A stretch of 64,000 nucleotides of DNA from Eledone cirrhosa. Taxonomy: Eukaryota. The stretch's first letter is position 1. Every line of letters starts with the position of its first letter. The notes beneath the pieces were generated by a model. It made no database searches and was not told the DNA's origin. It saw only the letters and a list, made by a program, of their open reading frames with translations. The translations under genes and the position numbers were made by a program. The stretch spans positions 9,362,001-9,426,000 of the forward strand of contig OZ024747.1 of the NCBI GenBank assembly GCA_964016885.1, given 5' to 3'. Below are positions 7,501 to 56,127 of this stretch, in pieces.

Positions 7501-7957
7501 CAATATTAAATAAATGGAAAACTATATTTATAAAACCATATTTATTTCATTATATATATTTCGGGGATATCATATTAACAATATGCTATGCCTTCATCAG
7601 ACAAAATACAATATAAACAGTTTTATAGATAAATATATTCGACATACCGTAATAAACATCAACTTCATTTGAAGAGGTTTACTCTAGCAGTAAACCTCTT
7701 CAAATGAAGTTGATGTTTATTACGGTATGTCGAATATATTTATCTATAAAACTGTTTATATTGTATTTTGTCTGATGAAGGCATAGCATATTGTTAATAT
7801 GATATCCCCGAAATATATATAATGAAATAAATATGGTTTTATAAATATAGTTTTCCATTTATTTAATATTGTAAATATACTCCAAATATTTGTCGAGTGC
7901 TTTTATATCAGTTATAAATATTTACTAGTTGTAACCCAACAATTTTAAATATAACTT

Positions 7958-9792: not shown

Positions 9793-9897
9793 ATATATAT
9801 GTATAACGAAGGAATTGTGGTAAGGAACCAGATGGACCATAACGCACCAGAGTACTCAATACTTAGGTTAGTAGAGTGGGTAATAGGAAAAGATATG

Positions 9898-9993
9898 ACC
9901 CCGACGGCAGAGCTCAAGCCGTTTCGACGGCTATTTCTAGACTAAATTAGAATTTTTAGCCTGGTAAATAAATAGCCGAACTTATCAAGGGGT
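9898..9993 (-). ncRNA. Type I hammerhead ribozyme with U3-A8 core (family A, complete copy)
   Basis: Minus strand: ACCCC TTGATAA G-TT-CGGCTATTT...AAATAGCCG-T-C GAA ACGGC ttgagctct GCCGT C GGGGT. All three stems pair and the triplet is GUC. Confidence 0.82.
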
Positions 9994-10473
9994 ACTTCCT
10001 TATATGGGAAGATTGTAATTGTCAAGAGGATTGGTCAAAATTTGTTGTAAAGACAAATAAATCTTTCATGGCATTTGGTGGGAGGTATGGGTGGCTGAAC
10101 TTGCCGGTAGAACAAAGAGGGAGTGAGTAAAGCCTGTCAGGCGTTGAAAGTGAAATCTATACAGCAGATTCTAAGGATAGTGTATGAAAAGTCGAAAAAT
10201 TGTTCTGGAGAAAAGGAGGAGAGTTTAAAGAATAGGTATGTCGAATGGGAGTAGGAGACAATGAAAATAAAAAATATATATATAAAATTTAGATAGTGAG
10301 AAATGAATAACCCCACCCCCCACCAAAGAAAAACCAGTAGAGTCTAGAAAAAGATGCTATAATTAGTAGGTGTTGCTAATAGAAAAGTTTAGTAGGCAAA
10401 GCTATAGAAAAGTTTAATAAGTAGAGAATGGAAAATACTAAATAAGAAATTGTAGAAGTGGGTAGTGAAAAGT

Positions 10474-10580
10474 ATAATTGTTTCTACTTTAGGCACAAGG
10501 CCAGCAATTACCCAGTGCATTACTGGTACTTTATTTTATCGACCCCGTAAGGATGAAAGGCAAAGTCAACCTCGGCGGGA
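10474..10580 (-). mobile_element. SINE family 1, 5'-truncated
   Basis: Reverse complement of ...CTTTGCCTTTCATCCTTACGGGGTCGATAAAATAAAGTACCAG...AGTAGAAACAATTAT. Confidence 0.9.
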
Positions 10581-10981
10581 GGGGTCTAACACAGCTGCTA
10601 TAAATAGTTAGTAAAGCGTAAAGCGTAATCAGCCAATGCTATCTTACAATTACAGGTTAATAAGTTGAGTAAAGAAAATAGTAAATAGGAAATTTTGAAA
10701 TTGTAGAATTGGAGTAGTAACAAAAAAGAAGAAATTATAGGGGTCTAACACATCTGCTAAAAATAGTTAGTAAAGCGTAATCGGCCAATTCTATCTTAAG
10801 ACGTTCTATTTAGACAGCTAGATCCGAACTGTTCGGATCTAGCTGTCGAAACGGCCGGAGCTCAGCCGTCGGGGTCCTGACCTCTTTTCCTATTACCCAC
10901 TCTACTATCCTAAGTATCGAGTACTCTGGTGCGTTATGGTCCACCTGGTTCCTTACCACACTTTCTTTGTTCTCTCTCTCT

Positions 10982-15352: not shown

Positions 15353-17560
15353 TTATTCATTCAGCTTGGGTTGAAATTTATCAATAAAATTCTTTTCTTT
15401 AATTTTTCTCTTGATTTCACTTGGGCTGTGTAGTTTGTAGAATGGAAATATTATAAACATTTTCTGAGCACATGTTGCTAGATGGTTACTCAGGGGTATC
15501 TTACGGACTTTTGGGTCTCTGATTTGTTGTCGGTGCACCCGTGCACGTTCCGATAGTGCATTTCCAGTTTGACCGACATATAGTTCTTCACAATCCGGGT
15601 ATTTAATGCAGTAAATTAGATTTCTGCTTTTGCAGTTCATATTTGCATTTGGGAATATTTTTCCAGTTTTTGTGTTCATATATTGACCAGTATGTATGAA
15701 CTGACATGTGTCACATCGACTATCATTTCATTTAGATACAGTGAATGATTGGTCTTTGTTGTTAAGGTCAAATTTTGCCTTTGTTAGTAATTGCTTCAAA
15801 TTTTTCGGCTGTCTTTTACTAAGAGTCAAAGCTCGATCTGTGATTAAACCTTTTAATTCATTACTTTGAGCAATGATCGGTAGGCTTGTTTTGGAAGTGT
15901 TGGAGATATTCTGGTGACATGGGTTGTGTGTCATTATAAATGGTATGACCAGTTCTTGGTTTCTTCTTCCTTGGGTTGTCCTAAGTTGTTGTATAGGTAT
16001 TTTTATAGCCCGCTGTATGCCATTTTCTATAAGTAGAGATGGGTATTTTTGTTTGAGCAAAAATTCTCTCAGTTCTGTTAGGCGTTTGTTCCTGGTATTT
16101 GTATCTTCTACAATGGTACAAATTCTTCTGGTTAAGCAGTATGGGGTGTTGCGTTTTGTATGAGGTGAATGGCACGACTTAAAATTCAGATATTGATGGG
16201 TGTCTGTGTGTTTATAGTATATATCCGTGGTAATGGTGGTGTCGTTTTTCATTACCATTATATCTAGGAATGGTAATTTGGTACTACTCATCTCTTTTGT
16301 AAATTGGACAGATGGGTGTAGGTTATTCAGAGTATCTAGAGATTCTGTCCAGATGATGAAACAGTCGTGAAGGTTAATCTTCCAAGACTTTTCAATGTAC
16401 TTTCTAAAGTCAGTACTATATTTTTCCTCTATTTCTTGGTAGAGTTGTTGTTCTAAGTATCCCATTACAAAGTTCGCGTAAACGGGAGCAAACTTCGTTC
16501 CCATCGCTGTGCCTCTAATTTGGATGTAATTCTTTCCATTGAAGAAGAATGTGTTGTTTTCCAGAATAAGTTTGACTGCATTTAATATAAATGGCGCTGT
16601 GAATCTGGTTGGAATCACTTCTCTATGTTTTTCCACCCAGTATTTAACCGCTTTTATTCCTAAATCATGTGCAATGTTGGTGTAAAGGCTTACCACATCA
16701 AAACTAAGTAGAAGTGAATTCGTTTCCGTGGTTTTGGGAACATGGGAGAGGAAGTCGATATCATCCCGGATGAAACTGGGTATGTGAATACATAGTGGTT
16801 TCAAAATAATGTCAACAAAATTGCTTAGACGGTGGGTAGGGCATGTTGGACAGCTATAATATGTCTAAGTTTTAAGTCTTTTGGGTGTAGTAATTTAATG
16901 TACTCACTGTTTTGTTCTTTTACTGCCAGTTGGATTTCTTTTGACTTATGAATTTTCGGCAAGCCATACAGGTTGCTGGGTTTTGGCTCAAAATTGGTGA
17001 TGTAGTCTCTTTCCTTATCAGTAAGTGAGTTGTGGTATTTTGAAGCCAGGTTGTTGATCTTCTTCATGATGTTGTGGTCTATATTTGACGGTATTTCATG
17101 GTAGAATGTTGTGTCTTTCAGTTGTTCCTCAACCAAATCTTTGTAGTTTCAGTATCCATTATAACAATTACACCCCCTTTATCTGCTTGTTTAATTATTA
17201 TTGTTTTATCATTTTGTATACGTTTAAGTGCAGACATTTCCGATTTGTTAATGTTTGGCCTAACATTAGTATTACGTCTAAGAGGAAATTTAGACAGGAT
17301 GTCAACGTATTGGTCGAGATAGGTATTTCTTCCTTTTGGCGGAGTGAAATTTGATTTATTCTTTACTAGTGATTCATCACTCTCATTACTTTTATCAGCG
17401 AAGAATTCTACAAGTCCTGATTTACGACAGAATTCTTGGGTATCCTCCTTTAGTTCTTGGTGGTTGACTGTTGGAGTCGGTGTGAATTTCAGTCCTTTTG
17501 ATAGAATTTGCATTTCATCATTGTCAAGATCTCTTTTGGATAAATTAATTATTTTAGGAT
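15353..17560 (-). pseudogene. PLE reverse transcriptase plus GIY-YIG endonuclease ORF, with two frameshifts and one in-frame TGA
   Basis: LSKGLKFTPTP, IIIKQADKGG, LYGLPKIHK, SFDVVSLYTNI, GTAMGTKFAPVYAN, degenerate YxDD (INLHDCF), LPFLDI, RCDTC, NLIYCI..LYVGQT..RARVH. Confidence 0.95.
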
Positions 17561-43194: not shown

Positions 43195-43369
43195 AGCATC
43201 GGTAGAGCGTCGGACGCCATACTTTACAGCAAAGAGTTACGGCCCTTGCTATTCTGAGTTCAAATCCCGCCGAGGTTAACTTTGCCTTTCATCCTTACGG
43301 GGTCGATAAAATAAAGTACCAGTAATACACTGGGGTAATTACTGGCCTTGCGCCAAAAGTAGAAACAAA
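43195..43369 (+). mobile_element. SINE family 1
   Basis: B box, core and 3' end match. Confidence 0.9.
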
Positions 43370-43540: not shown

Positions 43541-43637
43541 TACCCCTTTATAAGTTCAGCTAGGTTCCTGCCGTTCTAATACTGGTGGCTTAGTATGGGT
43601 CTAGCTGTCGAAACGGCCGGAGCTCAGCCATCAGGGA
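43541..43637 (+). ncRNA. Family A hammerhead, variant subfamily, probably inactivated
   Basis: TACCCC TTTATAA (G5>U) GTT CAGCTAG...CTAGCTG TC GAAACGGC..GCCATC AGGG. Confidence 0.65.
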
Positions 43638-44206
43638 CATGAATCTTTTCATATTTCCCACTCTACTACCCGAAGTATCGAGTACTCTGGTGCATTATGG
43701 TCCACCTGGTATCTTACCACTCCTTCGTTGTTGTTATATATATATATATTTACAATATTAAATAAATGGAAACTATATTTATAAAACCATATTTATTTCA
43801 TTATATATATTTCAGGGATATCATATTAACAATATGCTATGCCTTCCTCAGACAAAATACAATATAAACAGTTTTATAGATAAATAGATTCGACATACCG
43901 TAATAACATCGACTTGCATTTGAAGAGGTTGATATGCCATATCAACCTCTTCAAATGCAAGTCGATGTTATTACGGTATGTCGAATCTATTTATCTATAA
44001 AACTGTTTATATTGTATTTTGTCTGAGGAAGGCATAGCATATTGTTAATATGATATCCCTGAAATATATATAATGAAATAAATATGGTTTTATAAATATA
44101 GTTTCCATTTATTTAATATTGTAAATATACTCCAAATATTTGTCGAGTGCTTTTATATCAGTTATAAATATTTACTAGTTGTAACCCAACAATTTTAAAT
44201 ATAACT

Positions 44207-46580: not shown

Positions 46581-49500
46581 CTACCACCACTGACAACATA
46601 ACATACACAACATACACAACCACAACCAACACCACCATCACCACCATCAACACTACAACTACCAACACTACCACCACTAACAACACAACATAACCAACCA
46701 CAACCAACACCACCATCAACACTACAACTACCAACACTACCACCACTAACAACACAACATACACAAACCACAACCATCACCACCATCACTACTAAACTAC
46801 CAACACTACCACCACTAACAACACAACATAACCAACCACAACCAACACCACCTTCACCACCATCACCACTACAACTACCAACACTACCACCACTAACAAC
46901 ACAACATAACCAACCACAACCAACACCACCATCACCACCATCAACACTACAACTACCAACACTACCACCACTAACAACACAACATAACCAACCACAACCA
47001 ACACCACCATCACCACCATCACCACTAAACTACCAACACTACCACCACTAACAACACAACATAACCAACCACAACCAACACCACCATCACCACCATCACC
47101 ACTACAACTACCAACACTACCACCACTAACAACACAACATACACAAACCACAACCAACACCACCATCACCACCATCACCACTAAACTACCAACACTACCA
47201 CCACTAACAACACAACATAACCAACCACAACCAACACCACCATCACCACCATCAACACTACAACTACCAACACTACCACCACTAACAACACAACATAACC
47301 AACCACAACCAACACCACCATCACCACCATCACCACTAAACTACCAACACTACCACCACTAACAACACAACATAACCAACCACAACCAACACCACCATCA
47401 CCACCATCAACACTACAACTACCAACACTACCACCACTAACAACTCAACATAACCAACCGCAACCAACACCACCATCACCACCATCACCACTAAACTACC
47501 AACACTACCACCACTAACAACACAACATAACCAACCACAACCAACACCACCATCACCACGATCACCACTACAACTACCAACACTACCACCACTAACAACA
47601 CAACATACACAAACCACAACCAACACCACCATCACCACCATCACCACTAAACTACCAACACTACCACCACTAACAACACAACATAACCAACCACAACCAA
47701 CACCACCATCACCACCATCAACACTACAACTACCAACACTACCACCACTAACAACACAACATACCCAACCACAACCAACACCACCATCACCACTACAACT
47801 ACCAACACTACCACCACTAACAACACAACATACACAACCACAACCATCACCACCATCAACACTACAACTACCAACACTACCACCACTAACAACACAACAT
47901 ACCCAAACCACCACCATCACCACCATCAACACTACAACTACCAACACTACCACCACTAACAACACAACATACCCAACCACAACCAACACCACCATCACCA
48001 CCATCACCACTACCAACACTACCACCACTAACAACACAACATACCCAAACCACCACCATCACCACCATCAACACTACAACTACCAACACTACCACCACTA
48101 ACAACACAACATACACAACCACAACCATCACCACCATCAACACTACAACTACCAACACTACCACCACTAACAACGCAACATACCCAAACCACCACCATCA
48201 CCACCATCAACACTACAACTACCAACACTACCACCACTAACAACACAACATACCCAACCACAACCAACACCATCATCAACACTACAACTACCAACACTAC
48301 CACCACTAACAACACAACATACACAACCACAACCATCACCACCAACAACACTAAAACTACCAACACTACCACCACTAACAACACAACATACACAAACAAC
48401 AACCAACACCACCATCACCACTACAACTACCAACACTACCACCACTAACAACACAACATACACAACCACAACCATCACCACCAACAACACTACAACTACC
48501 AACACTACCACCACTAACAACACAACATACACAAACCACAACCAACACCACCATCACCACTATAACTACCAACACTACCACCACTAACAACACAACATAC
48601 ACAACCACAACCATCACCACCAACAACACTACAACTACCAACACTACCACCACTAACAACACAACATACCCAACCACAACCAACACCACCATCAACACTA
48701 CAACTACCAACACTACCACCACTAACAACACAACATACACAACCACAACCATCACCACCAACAACACTACAACTACCAACACTACCACCACTAACAACAC
48801 AACATACACAAACCACAACCAACACCACCATCACCACTACAACTACCAACACTACCACCACTAACAACACAACATACACAAACCACAACCATCACCACCA
48901 TCACCACTACAACTACCAACACTACCACCACTAACAACACAACATACACAACCACAACCATCACCACCAACAACACTACAACTACCAACACTACCACCAC
49001 TAACAACACAACATACACAAACCACAACCAACACCACCATCACCACTACAACTACCAACACTACCACCACTAACAACACAACATACACAACCACAACCAT
49101 CACCACCAACAACACTACAACTACCAACACTACCACCACTAACAACACAACATACACAAACCACAACCATCACCACCATCACCACTACAACTACCAACAC
49201 TACCACCACTAACAACACAACATACACAACCACAACCATCACCACCAACAACACTACAACTACCAACACTACCACCACTAACAACACAACATACACAAAC
49301 CACAACCATCACCACCATCACCACTACAACTACCAACACTACCACCACTAACAACACAACATACACAACCACAACCATCACCACCAACAACACTACAACT
49401 ACCAACACTACCACCACTAACAACACAACATACACAAACCACAACCAACAACACCATCACCACTACAACTACCAACACTACCACCACTAACAACACAACA

Positions 49501-52500
49501 TACACAACCACAACCATCACCACCAACAACACTACAACTACCAACACTACCACCACTAACAACACAACATACACAAACCACAACCATCACCACCATCACC
49601 ACTACAACTACCAACACTACCACCACTAACAACACAACATACACAACCACAACCATCACCACCAACAACACTACAACTACCAACACTACCACCACTAACA
49701 ACACAACATACACAAACCACAACCATCACCACCATCACCACTACAACTACCAACACTACCACCACTAACAACACAACATACACAACCACAACCATCACCA
49801 CCAACAACACTACAACTACCAACACTACCACCACTAACAACACAACATACACAAACCACAACCATCACCACCATCACCACTACAACTACCAACACTACCA
49901 CCACTAACAACACAACATACTCAACCACAGCCATCGCCACCAACAACACTACAACTACCAACACTACCACCACTAACAACACAACATACTCAACCACAAC
50001 CATCACCACCAACAACACTACAACTACCAACACTACCACCACTAACAACACAACATACACAAACTACAACCAACACCACCATCACCACTACAACTACCAA
50101 CACTACCACCACTAACAACACAACATACACAACCACAACCATCACCACCAACAACACTACAACTACCAACACTACCACCACTAACAACACAACATACACA
50201 AACCACAACCATCACCACCATCACCACTACAACTACCAACACTACCACCACTAACAACACAACATACACAACCACAACCATCACCACCAACAACACTACA
50301 ACTACCAACACTACCACCACTAACAACACAACATACACAACCACAGCCATCGCCACCAACAACACTACAACTACCAACACTACCACCACTAACAACACAA
50401 CATACACAAACCACAACCATCACCACCATCACCACTACAACTACCAACACTACCACCACTAACAACACAACATACACAACCACAACCATCACCACCATCA
50501 CCACCAACAACACTACAACTACCAACACTACCACCACTAACAACACAACATACACAAACCACAACCAACACCACCATCACCACTACAACTACCAACACTA
50601 CCACCACTAACAACACAACATACACAAACCACAACCAACACAACCATCACCACCATCAACACTACAACTACCAACACTACCACCACTAACAACACAACAT
50701 ACACAAACCACAACCAACACAACCATCACCACCAACAACACTACAACTACCAACACTACCACCACTAACAACACAACATACACAAACCACAACCATCACC
50801 ACCATCACCACTACAACTACCAACACTACCACCACTAACAACACAACATACACAACCACAACCATCACCACCATCACCACCAACAACACTACAACTACCA
50901 ACACTACCACCACTAACAACACAACATACACAAACCACAACCAACACCACCATCACCACTACAACTACCAACACTACCACCACTAACAACACAACATACA
51001 CAAACCACCACCAACACAACCATCACCACCATCAACACTACAACTACCAACACTACCACCACTAACAACACAACATACACAAACCACAACCAACACAACC
51101 ATCACCACCATCACTACTACAACTACCAACACTACCACCACTAACAACACAACATACACAAACCACAACCAACACCACCATCAACACTACAACTACCAAC
51201 ACTACCACCACTAACAACACAACATACACAAACCACAACCAACACCACCATCACTACTACAACTACCAACACTACCACCACTAACAACACAACATACACA
51301 AACCACAACCATCACCACCATCACCACCATCACTACTACAACTACCAACACTACCACCACTATCAACACAACATACACAAACCACCACCAACACAACCAT
51401 CACCACCATCACTACTACAACTACCAACACTACCACCACTAACAACACAACATACACAAACCACAACCATCACCACCATCACCACCATCACTACTACAAC
51501 TACCAACACTACCACCACTAACAACACAACATACACAAACCACCACCAACACAACCATCACCACCATCACTACTACAACTACCAACACTACCACCACTAA
51601 CAACACAACATACACAAACCACAACCATCACCACCATCACTACTACAACTACCAACACTACCACCACTAACAACACAACATACACAAACCACAACCATCA
51701 CCACCATCACCACCATCACTACTACAACTACCAACACTACCACCACTAACAACACAACATACACAAACCACCACCAACACAACCATCACCACCATCACTA
51801 CTACAACTACCAACACTACCACCACTAACAACACAACATACACAAACCACAACCATCACCACCATCACTACTACAACTACCAACACTACCACCACTAACA
51901 ACACAACATACACAAACCACAACCATCACCACCATCACTACTACAACTACCAACACTACCACCACTAACAACACAACATACACAACCACAACCAACACCA
52001 CCATCACCACCATCACCACTACAACTACCAACACTACCACCACTAACAACACAACATACACAAACCACAACCATCACCACCATCACCACCATCACTACTA
52101 CAACTACCAACACTACCACCACTAACAACACAACATACACAAACCACAACCATCACCACCATCACCACCATCAACACTACAACTACCAACACTACCACCA
52201 CTAACAACACAACATACCCAACCACAACCAACACCACCATCACCACTACAACTACCAACACTACCACCACTAACAACACAACATACACAAACCACAACCA
52301 TCACCACCATCACCACCATCAACACTACAACTACCAACACTACCACCACTAACAACACAACATACCCAACCACAACCAACACCACCATCAACACTACAAC
52401 TACCAACACTACCACCACTAACAACACAACATACCCAACCACAACCAACACCACCATCACCACTACAACTACCAACACTACCACCACTAACAACACAACA

Positions 52501-55500
52501 TACACAAACCACAACCAACACCACCATCACCACTACAACTACCAACACTACCACCACTAACAACACAACATAACCAACCACAACCAACACCACCATCACC
52601 ACCATCAACACTACAACTACCAACACTACCACCACTAACAACACAACATACACAAACCACAACCATCACCACCATCACCACCATCACTACTACAACTACC
52701 AACACTACCACCACTAACAACACAACATACACAAACCACAACCAACACCACCATCACCACCATCACTACTACAACTACCAACACTACCATCACTAACAAC
52801 ACAACATACACAAACCACAACCAACACCACCATCACCACCATCAACACTACAACTACCAACACTACCATCACTAACAACACAACATACCCAACCACAACC
52901 ATCACCACCATCACCACCATCAACACTACAACTACCAACACTACCACCACTAACAACACAACATACACAAACCACAACCATCACCACCATCACCACCATC
53001 AACACTACAACTACCAACACTACCACCACTAACAACACAACATACACAAACCACAACCATCACCACCATCACCACCATCAACACTACAACTACCAACACT
53101 ACCACCACTAACAACACAACATACACAAACCACAACCATCACCACCATCACCACCATCAACACTACAACTACCAACACTACCACCACTAACAACACAACA
53201 TACCCAACCACAACCAACACCACCATCACCACTACAACTACCAACACTACCACCACTAACAACACAACATACACAAACCACAACCATCACCACCATCACC
53301 ACCATCACTACTACAACTACCAACACTACCACCACTAACAACACAACATACACAAACCACCACCAACACAACCATCACCACCATCACTACTACAACTACC
53401 AACACTACCACCACTAACAACACAACATACACAAACCACAACCATCACCACCATCACCACCATCACTACTACAACTACCAACACTACCACCACTAACAAC
53501 ACAACATACACAAACCACCACCAACACAACCATCACCACCATCACTACTACAACTACCAACACTACCACCACTAACAACACAACATACACAAACCACAAC
53601 CATCACCACCATCACTACTACAACTACCAACACTACCACCACTAACAACACAACATACACAAACCACAACCATCACCACCATCACCACCATCACTACTAC
53701 AACTACCAACACTACCACCACTAACAACACAACATACACAAACCACCACCAACACAACCATCACCACCATCACTACTACAACTACCAACACTACCACCAC
53801 TAACAACACAACATACACAAACCACAACCATCACCACCATCACTACTACAACTACCAACACTACCACCACTAACAACACAACATACACAAACCACAACCA
53901 TCACCACCATCACCACCATCACTACTACAACTACCAACACTACCACCACTAACAACACAACATACACAACCACAACCAACACCACCATCACCACCATCAC
54001 CACTACAACTACCAACACTACCACCACTAACAACACAACATACACAAACCACAACCATCACCACCATCACCACCATCACTACTACAACTACCAACACTAC
54101 CACCACTAACAACACAACATACACAAACCACAACCATCACCACCATCACCACCATCAACACTACAACTACCAACACTACCACCACTAACAACACAACATA
54201 CCCAACCACAACCAACACCACCATCACCACTACAACTACCAACACTACCACCACTAACAACACAACATACACAAACCACAACCATCACCACCATCACCAC
54301 CATCAACACTACAACTACCAACACTACCACCACTAACAACACAACATACCCAACCACAACCAACACCACCATCAACACTACAACTACCAACACTACCACC
54401 ACTAACAACACAACATACCCAACCACAACCAACACCACCATCACCACTACAACTACCAACACTACCACCACTAACAACACAACATACACAAACCACAACC
54501 AACTCCACCATCACCACTACAACTACCAACACTACCACCACTAACAACACAACATAACCAACCACAACCAACACCACCATCACCACCATCAACACTACAA
54601 CTACCAACACTACCACCACTAACAACACAACATACACAAACCACAACCATCACCACCATCACCACCATCACTACTACAACTACCAACACTACCACCACTA
54701 ACAACACAACATACACAAACCACAACCAACACCACCATCACCACCATCACTACTACAACTACCAACACTACCATCACTAACAACACAACATACACAAACC
54801 ACAACCAACACCACCATCACCACCATCAACACTACAACTACCAACACTACCATCATTAACAACACAACATACCCAACCACAACCATCACCACCATCACCA
54901 CCATCAACACTACAACTACCAACACTACCACCACTAACAACACAACATACACAAACCACAACCATCACCACCATCACCACCATCAACACTACAACTACCA
55001 ACACTACCACCACTAACAACACAACATACACAAACCACAACCATCACCACCATCACCACCATCAACACTACAACTACCAACACTACCACCACTAACAACA
55101 CAACATACACAAACCACAACCATCACCACCATCACCACCATCAACACTACAACTACCAACACTACCACCACTAACAACACAACATACCCAACCACAACCA
55201 ACACCACCATCACCACTACAACTACCAACACTACCACCACTAACAACACAACATACACAACCACAACCAACACCACCAACACCACCATCACCACTACAAC
55301 TACCAACACTACCACCACTAACAACACAACATACTCAAACCACCACCATCACCACCATCACCACTACAACTACCAACACTACCACCACTAACAACACAAC
55401 ATACCCAACCACAACCAACACCACCATCAACACTACAACTACCAACACTACCACCACTAACAACACAACATACTCAAACCACAACCAACACCACCATCAC

Positions 55501-56110
55501 CACTACAACTACCAACACTACCACCACTAACAACACAACATACTCAAACCACCACCATCACCACCATCAACACTACAACTACCAACACTACCACCACTAA
55601 CAACACTACATACACAACCACAACCAACACCACCATCACCACTACAACTACCAACACTACCACCACTAACAACACAACATACTCAAACCACCACCATCAC
55701 CACCATCACCACTACAACTACCAACACTACCACCACTAACAACACAACATACCCAACCACAACCAACACCACCATCACCACTACAACTACCAACACTACC
55801 ACCACTAACAACACAACATACTCAAACCACAACCAACACCACCATCAACACTACAACTACCAACACTACCACCACTAACAACACAACATACACAACCACA
55901 ACCAACACCACCATCACCACCATCAACACTACAACTACCAACACTACCACCACTAACAACACAACATACCCAACCACAACCAACACCACCATCACCACTA
56001 CAACTACCAACACTACCACCACTAACAACACAACATACTCAAACCACAACCAACACCACCATCACCACTACAACTACCAACACTACCACCACTAACAACA
56101 CAACATACAA
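46581..56110. repeat. 9.5-kb C/A-rich satellite, monomer about 69-79 bp, with higher-order structure
   Basis: Constant ACTACAACTACCAACACTACCACCACTAACAACACAACATA plus a variable tail that changes in 9-bp steps; almost no G on the + strand. Confidence 0.97.
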
Positions 56111-56127
56111 CAACCATCTATTATATA

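Follow-up and report, generated by a model that had tools for sequence, protein, structure and literature searches.

The locus described here, a 96-nt minus-strand segment of a 64,000-nt stretch of Eledone cirrhosa DNA (contig OZ024747.1; the whole stretch is hereafter the window), raises the question of whether a repeat with a UUGAUAA core is a hammerhead ribozyme, which element carries it and what it does there. Sequence inspection and minimum free energy (MFE) prediction agreed on a type I hammerhead, with three helices round the core and open at stem I (Table 1), confirming the stems I–III, the UUGAUAA core, the GAAA and the GUC triplet given in the initial annotation. The predicted fold has an energy of −30.1 kcal/mol (z −2.77) and was matched in 2 of 200 shuffles, while pair probabilities calculated with flanks were 0.98 for stem I (ACCCC/GGGGU), 0.95 for stem II and 0.95 for stem III. 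All bases required of a hammerhead (U4, G5, A6, N7, A9, G12, A13, A14, A15.1-U16.1, H17) are present, and positions 3 and 8 form a Watson-Crick pair, U3-A8. Stem II consists of G10.1-C11.1, a 2x1 U loop, a lower helix (9978-9970/9936-9928; CGGCUAUUU/AAAUAGCCG) and an upper helix, with GAAA standing 3' of it, and the GUC triplet places the predicted cut between 9903 (C17) and 9902. No loop 1–loop 2 contact was identified in this copy, whose stem II is too long for the usual loop-loop contact. Rfam returned no hammerhead match at 9898-9993 even at E 10, in line with the earlier expectation that consensus searches overlook a U3-A8 core. Among the family matches within the window, this copy is, as had been noted, the only one with an intact core. 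The copy at 43541, previously cited for a changed stem II with retained pairing, does pair there (CAGCUAG/CUAGCUG), but belongs to a different, older subfamily and has a damaged core (UUUAUAA, AUC triplet). With the fold and core of a hammerhead, the segment is likely a self-cutting ribozyme, which, as part of the terminal repeat that a Hydra-clade Penelope-like element (PLE) carries, likely cuts the element RNA after GUC at its 3' end.

Table 1. Coordinates in the window of the hammerhead, its parts and the adjoining copies.
Feature	Position	Strand	Basis or detail
Type I hammerhead, U3-A8 core	9898..9993	-	sequence, MFE fold, pair probabilities
Core strand UUGAUAA (U3-U4-G5-A6-U7-A8-A9)	9982..9988	-	U3 = 9988, N7 = 9984, A8 = 9983
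Long stem II, 56 nt	9926..9981	-	fold and subfamily comparison
TTAGT motif, A = 9943; commonest copy start, putative transcription start 41 nt before the cut	9941..9945	-	copy ends
Stem III, 5 bp; 9-nt loop UU GAGCUC U with GAGCUC palindrome	9904..9922	-	fold, subfamily comparison, pair probabilities
80-nt "tail" between two insertion 3' ends	9804..9883	-	loose ends at L045:2331 and 2411
Element 3' UTR, 5'-truncated at ~10799, with unrelated repeat at ~10479-10580	9994..10799	-	genome copies
Adjoining short A3-subfamily (older) copy, fold-back junction	10800..10971	+	sequence, family matches
A3-subfamily copy, compensated stem II, damaged core	43542..43729	+	sequence

Searching the 3.0-Gb genome with a 19-nt stem III pattern gave 74,072 exact matches, a figure larger than the number of insertions, many of which hold two arms. 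A core was found upstream of only 6,570 of these matches (8.9%, a lower bound as the pattern demands an exact core match), and about 91% are without a recognisable 5' half of the core. One anchored pattern sorted the cores into U3-A8 (4,999), C3·A8 (1,481), U3·G8 (58) and C3-G8 (32), each count containing a few chance matches, so that 4,999 of the 6,570 matched cores have the Watson-Crick pair U3-A8. Counting the window copy itself, its 30 best matches, a set chosen by similarity, likewise all have U3 and A8. The possibility that the window copy is a chance double mutant is ruled out by these counts, U3-A8 being the family majority (4,999 versus 32 C3-G8). Consensus and Rfam searches consequently overlook thousands of hammerheads in one genome. 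Whole subfamilies carry the core CUGAGAA (C3·A8), and one small subfamily carries UUGAAGA (U3·G8). The C3-G8 copies were considered as proof of covariation and rejected as such: by reading, 14 of the 32 matches look genuine, which is not above the 17 expected from independent A8-to-G changes on C3·A8 copies. Comparison of the copies thus shows no covariation between positions 3 and 8. Of the earlier claim, the presence of U3-A8 as a pair stands, but its description as compensatory is weakened by the 1,481 C3·A8 copies and by C3-G8 counts at or below independent decay; the 3-8 pair is kept in this family, but not strictly. Rescue of C3·A8 by A-to-I editing (C3-I8) was rejected as well, since editing would leave G8 in the cDNA, and copies of this kind amount to ~1%.

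The ends of the genomic copies point to where the element RNA may begin and end. Within a set of 121 matches (50 fetched regions plus the window), which leans to short copies because several whole-core regions were fetched separately or not at all, 110 stop at most 22 nt from GAAAC, 4 stop at 24-32 nt and 7 run through. Copy ends are spread over −11 to −22, with the A of TTAGT at −18: across the genome, 2,727 matches of the A1 subfamily stop at −17, 4,315 at this A and 1,582 at −19, while 3,747 reach −20 or beyond, and 22%, 45% and 30% of A1 5' ends stop at −17, at the A and at −19, respectively. Copies of subfamily A3, with another stem II, stop in the same register, and inversion joints peak at the A too (two public runs from one sample, with contigs perhaps not independent of the assembly). 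The start motif reads T[T/C]AGT, and the start A is often preceded by an extra G: by eye, G stands before the A in 52 of the 100 first listed rows versus 19/100 and 16/100 at the neighbouring positions, and C in 42 of the 100 first listed rows. Adjoining sequence can template 6 of the 14 G-before-A cases inspected, and the extra G is rare in A2 (2/31) and A3 (0/9). An extra G is a mark of cap copying, and T[T/C]AGT resembles an initiator motif. At the other side, two 3' ends were found, …CCTA at ~9884 and …CGTTA at ~9804, both followed by (TA)n and lying ~20 and ~100 nt past the predicted cut site. The same kind of signature, two internal reverse transcription start sites that define a tail, is described in the available part of the report on the Anolis element PAc (PMC11167929).

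The pile-up of copies at one A, together with the extra G, fits a capped transcript that starts inside the ribozyme. We therefore favour, with a probability of about 0.6, a reading in which transcription starts at the stem II A, so that the RNA's 5' end would carry half a ribozyme and its 3' end a complete one, and in which internal reverse transcription follows a nick in (TA)n, most cDNAs ending at the RNA 5' end. RNA polymerase II would start at this A and give a capped transcript whose 5' end, because the start lies inside stem II, would hold no more of the ribozyme than its 3' half and be unable to cut itself, while the 3' copy reached by read-through would be whole and would cut after GUC. 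The element enzyme would nick (TA)n, and reverse transcription would proceed from two internal sites, one 20 nt and the other 100 nt beyond the cut. Most cDNAs would then run to the RNA 5' end and stop, producing copies of ~60 and ~140 nt as well as head-to-head pairs, and a minority would continue into, or start from, the 3' end and produce longer copies such as the one at 9898-9993. Insertion ends would in this way predict the start and end of the RNA to the base. A promoter within the terminal repeat has a precedent in Drosophila Penelope, where it lies in the pseudo-LTR (PMC2377424, in the part available). A counterpoint comes from 30 junctions between repeat and ORF, at which the upstream ribozyme is whole in 16, partial in 9 and absent in 5; the 16 whole ones require an extra jump or an upstream start. 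Neither a start site inside a PLE hammerhead nor a C3·A8 lineage was found in the literature searched, of which coverage was partial, and the variants of Lunse et al. 2017 may bear on this novelty.

The same ends could arise differently, if the transcript had a whole ribozyme at both ends (or were circularised by two cuts and ligation) and the stem II ends reflected reverse transcriptase stalling or self-priming at the hairpin. A circle model has been proposed (PMC4209133, in the part available), palindromic junctions have been taken as self-priming on an antisense template (PMC3846280), tandem full units occur in this genome (L296-L299) and the ends are spread over ~10 nt. However, three subfamilies that differ in their stem II helices all have the peak of stops at one base of the conserved T[T/C]AGT. 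Stem II is AU-rich, whereas stems I and III, which are GC-rich, are for the most part read through. Stalling also leaves the G excess before the start A unaccounted for, and a circle has no 5' end. We regard this explanation as doubtful, although it is the strongest competitor of a start inside stem II.

If transcription does start inside stem II, the RNA would after cleavage end in the same 41 nt as at its capped start, and we tentatively propose that this 41-nt terminal repeat guides a jump of the reverse transcriptase between the RNA ends, 5' to 3', in the manner of LTR elements. Short copies, which number in the tens of thousands, would be strong-stop cDNAs that failed to jump, and the two RNA ends would perhaps be brought together by their palindromic GAGCUC loops. 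A hairpin dimer through the 2+6+1 palindromic loop was computed to be favoured by 9-17 kcal/mol; this loop resembles the HIV-1 dimerisation loop. Such a jump, if true, would assign a definite function to PLE hammerheads and account for the origin of pseudo-LTRs and tandems. The role of PLE hammerheads and the origin of pseudo-LTRs figure as open questions in the available parts of PMC8557442, PMC2377424 and PMC11167929.

Whether the ribozyme needs to cut at all was addressed through its core. A C3·A8 mismatch is expected to impair hammerhead cleavage. Impaired cleavage is reported for the 3·8 mismatches G8C and C3G (PMC11167929, in the part available). A tree was built from 330 columns that cover 3' UTR and ribozyme but leave out positions 3, 7 and 8 (43/116 copies), after 10 of 126 copies had been dropped as rearranged and with C3-G8 and most U3·G8 single mutants left out. 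The tree requires two changes at position 3, a single change being rejected (p-AU 1.4e-44). When the root is assumed to lie on A3, the most diverged subfamily (0.18 pairwise versus 0.026-0.059), it gives the order U3 to C3 and to U3 again in the youngest subfamily, and places the window copy near the base of the C3 branch. The 1,481 C3·A8 copies and the two changes at position 3 suggest that cutting is probably not required for the spread of the element. Its spread would accordingly have gone on for long while the ribozyme was poor or silent, which agrees with hammerhead core mutants of PAc still inserting in vitro (PMC11167929, in the part available). The family constitutes a natural experiment, since it has all four combinations at positions 3 and 8, persisted for long with a mismatched core and includes a young copy that is intact.

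These observations also lend something to the view that the repeat is a decayed ribozyme, no longer cutting and retained as a sequence that acts as promoter and binds protein. Position 3 varies freely next to a fixed A8, the 1,481 C3·A8 copies and the small U3·G8 subfamily have spread, and a promoter role of the DNA could account for conservation of the 3' half. Across subfamily majorities, some labels of which leaked between groups, N7 takes all four bases while U4, G5, A6, A9, GAAAC and GAGCUC are unchanged; the bases flanking the palindrome in loop III vary between subfamilies. A free N7 with fixed U4, G5, A6 and A9 is the pattern expected of a hammerhead core. That the 5' core strand keeps these four bases and a free N7 in subfamilies up to 40% apart upstream, and that the youngest subfamily has U3-A8 plus the predicted fold, argue against mere decay, which we consider unlikely and less probable than stalling.

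Predicted folding of the copies further suggests why this family would hold U3. All three stems were predicted for 47 of 87 U3-A8 copies, 0 of 22 C3·A8, 0 of 8 C3-G8 and 2 of 13 U3·G8 copies, and when the U3-A8 copies were scored with C3, the number fell from 47/87 to 10/87. Since C3 would lengthen the run of four C in stem I, it likely slips into the C4/G4 stem with shifted pairing, favouring U3-A8 in this family. The pairing of stem II is retained between subfamilies, as the initial annotation had it. In 29 hand-picked copies, 88.7% of cells are paired versus 85.4% in shuffles, and pairs changed on both sides number 6, which is not above the 5.4 of shuffles (218 of 500 shuffles). Between the A1 and A3 lineages, both partners have changed in three stem II pairs, swaps that separate just these two lineages, and in no pair of stems I and III. 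A built-in off switch, in which stem II GCCGU pairs with ACGGC in the half form, was also considered and rejected as not general, being predicted in 54 of 66 A1 and 13 of 18 A3 copies and only 7 of 48 A2 copies.

Longer copies extend upstream through the 3' UTR (0.7-1 kb) into an ORF, the identification of which the initial annotation had proposed. The window copy itself is a ~1-kb, 5'-truncated piece without ORF. At locus L208, an intact ORF of 719 aa lies between two hammerheads 3,118 bp apart and contains, in order, RWR37, DKT117, YRDD348, WFNPP, CNCPDRSIC572, VIY591..YIG606, CNLC670 and CKH698, so that a single frame encodes reverse transcriptase (RT) followed by a C-terminal GIY-YIG endonuclease. 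The CxCX5C linker, CxxC and CxH are present, and the CCHH cysteine pair between GIY and YIG is absent. A C-terminal GIY-YIG with Hydra motifs was found in 20 of 20 loci fetched by ORF end plus intact copy. According to the available part of Craig et al. 2021 (PMC8557442), the Hydra clade is defined by a C-terminal endonuclease, an RWK-like motif, DKT, CxCX5C, CxxC, CxH and the lack of CCHH. The element shares the further Hydra-clade traits of a length of ~3 kb and insertion in (TA)n; the canonical C3-G8 hammerhead noted for all listed Hydra members is replaced by U3-A8, a difference in an accompanying trait and not in the protein definition. By domain order and motifs, with published sequences compared by eye, the parent is a Hydra-clade PLE. 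Pfam and PDB sequence searches with the ORF were uninformative, a single-sequence fold reached pLDDT 33.5, and a protein search gave 2,216 relatives at ~40% identity whose names were not useful. The idea in the initial annotation that the hammerhead is the missing ribozyme of the Naiad clade, to which Naiads without canonical hammerheads, their insertion in (TA)n and the existence of octopus Naiads had lent some appeal, fails for this family: Naiads have an N-terminal endonuclease and a DKA motif (PMC8557442, in the part available), whereas the ORF found upstream here has a C-terminal GIY-YIG (L208 and 20/20 loci), DKT and all Hydra motifs, and (TA)n is targeted by Hydra elements too.

Two further features of full-length elements were recorded. 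Positions 3649-3880 of L208 appear to hold a 231-nt leader with one out-of-frame upstream ATG and a 13-codon frame inside the tail. The youngest subfamily forms a tandem at L296-L299 (G000:C1:91.475-91.489 Mb), where at least four full-length units follow each other with 3,542-bp spacing, and similar arrays occur at C1:437.20 Mb.

Comparison with known systems, each as far as the available part of its source reaches, places the family close to Hydra-1_Obim and the Hydra clade (Craig et al. 2021, PMC8557442), with which it shares domain order, motifs, the lack of CCHH, the ~3-kb length, the (TA)n target and a type I hammerhead in the terminal repeat. Its hammerhead differs from that of Hydra-1_Obim. 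The Hydra rows of File S2 in PMC8557442, read by eye, have in 26 of 26 cases a CUGANGA core (C3-G8), a stem II that is short and 1-3 nt in loop III, in contrast to the Eledone family with U3-A8, 56 nt in stem II, 9 nt in loop III and a 3' UTR 0.7-1 kb long. Given the C3-G8 cores and short stems of all 26 published rows, the combination of U3-A8 and a stem II of 56 nt is new for the Hydra clade as represented there. The core swap itself is not new: natural U3-A8 hammerheads, stated to be active in vitro, were described by Perreault et al. 2011 (PMC3088659), with the same core covariation; the part available describes neither a retroelement context nor a long stem II for them. Cervera and de la Pena 2014 (PMC4209133) reported ~1,300 PLE hammerheads with U3-A8 in Schistosoma mansoni. 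These Cercyon PLEs resemble the present family in having U3-A8 in the PLE repeat, thousands of copies, G10.1-C11.1 and a palindromic loop 3, but belong to another PLE clade, and their hammerheads are minimal, have little or no stem III and need dimers, whereas the Eledone hammerhead, with a stable 5-bp stem III, is predicted to fold as a monomer. The Poseidon element PAc of Anolis carolinensis (Frangieh et al. 2024, PMC11167929) likewise has an AT-rich target and a hammerhead dispensable for insertion in vitro, but its core is canonical C3-G8, its cleavage protein-assisted and its tail inside the ORF, and the available part of that report describes no ribozyme-internal start.

The window and the fetched loci contain other repeats as well. 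A tRNA-like short repeat, GCCTTTCATCC…GGTCGATAAA, probably a SINE, occurs at 10479-10580 (minus strand), where it interrupts the element 3' UTR, and at ~43255-43360 (plus strand). Motifs of the form CUGAUGA…GAAA and long palindromes in other repeat families at 43830-44130, 7600-7780, 28688 and 37337 are possibly canonical minimal hammerheads of other PLEs. Long tandem arrays occupy 46658-56116, 59043-63606 and 1-1629, with 69/70/79-nt C/A-rich units, (ACC/ACT)-rich open frames and a 28-nt unit. A 378-aa open frame at 15731-16864 (minus strand) bears RT motifs of another PLE type (…GTAMGTKFAPVYAN…) and resembles the Neptune rows in the available part of the PMC8557442 alignment. Pieces of other PLE families were seen in two fetched loci, namely a second Hydra-like ORF at L202 3653-5008 (minus strand) and a Neptune-like endonuclease at L047 1582-2313 (plus strand).
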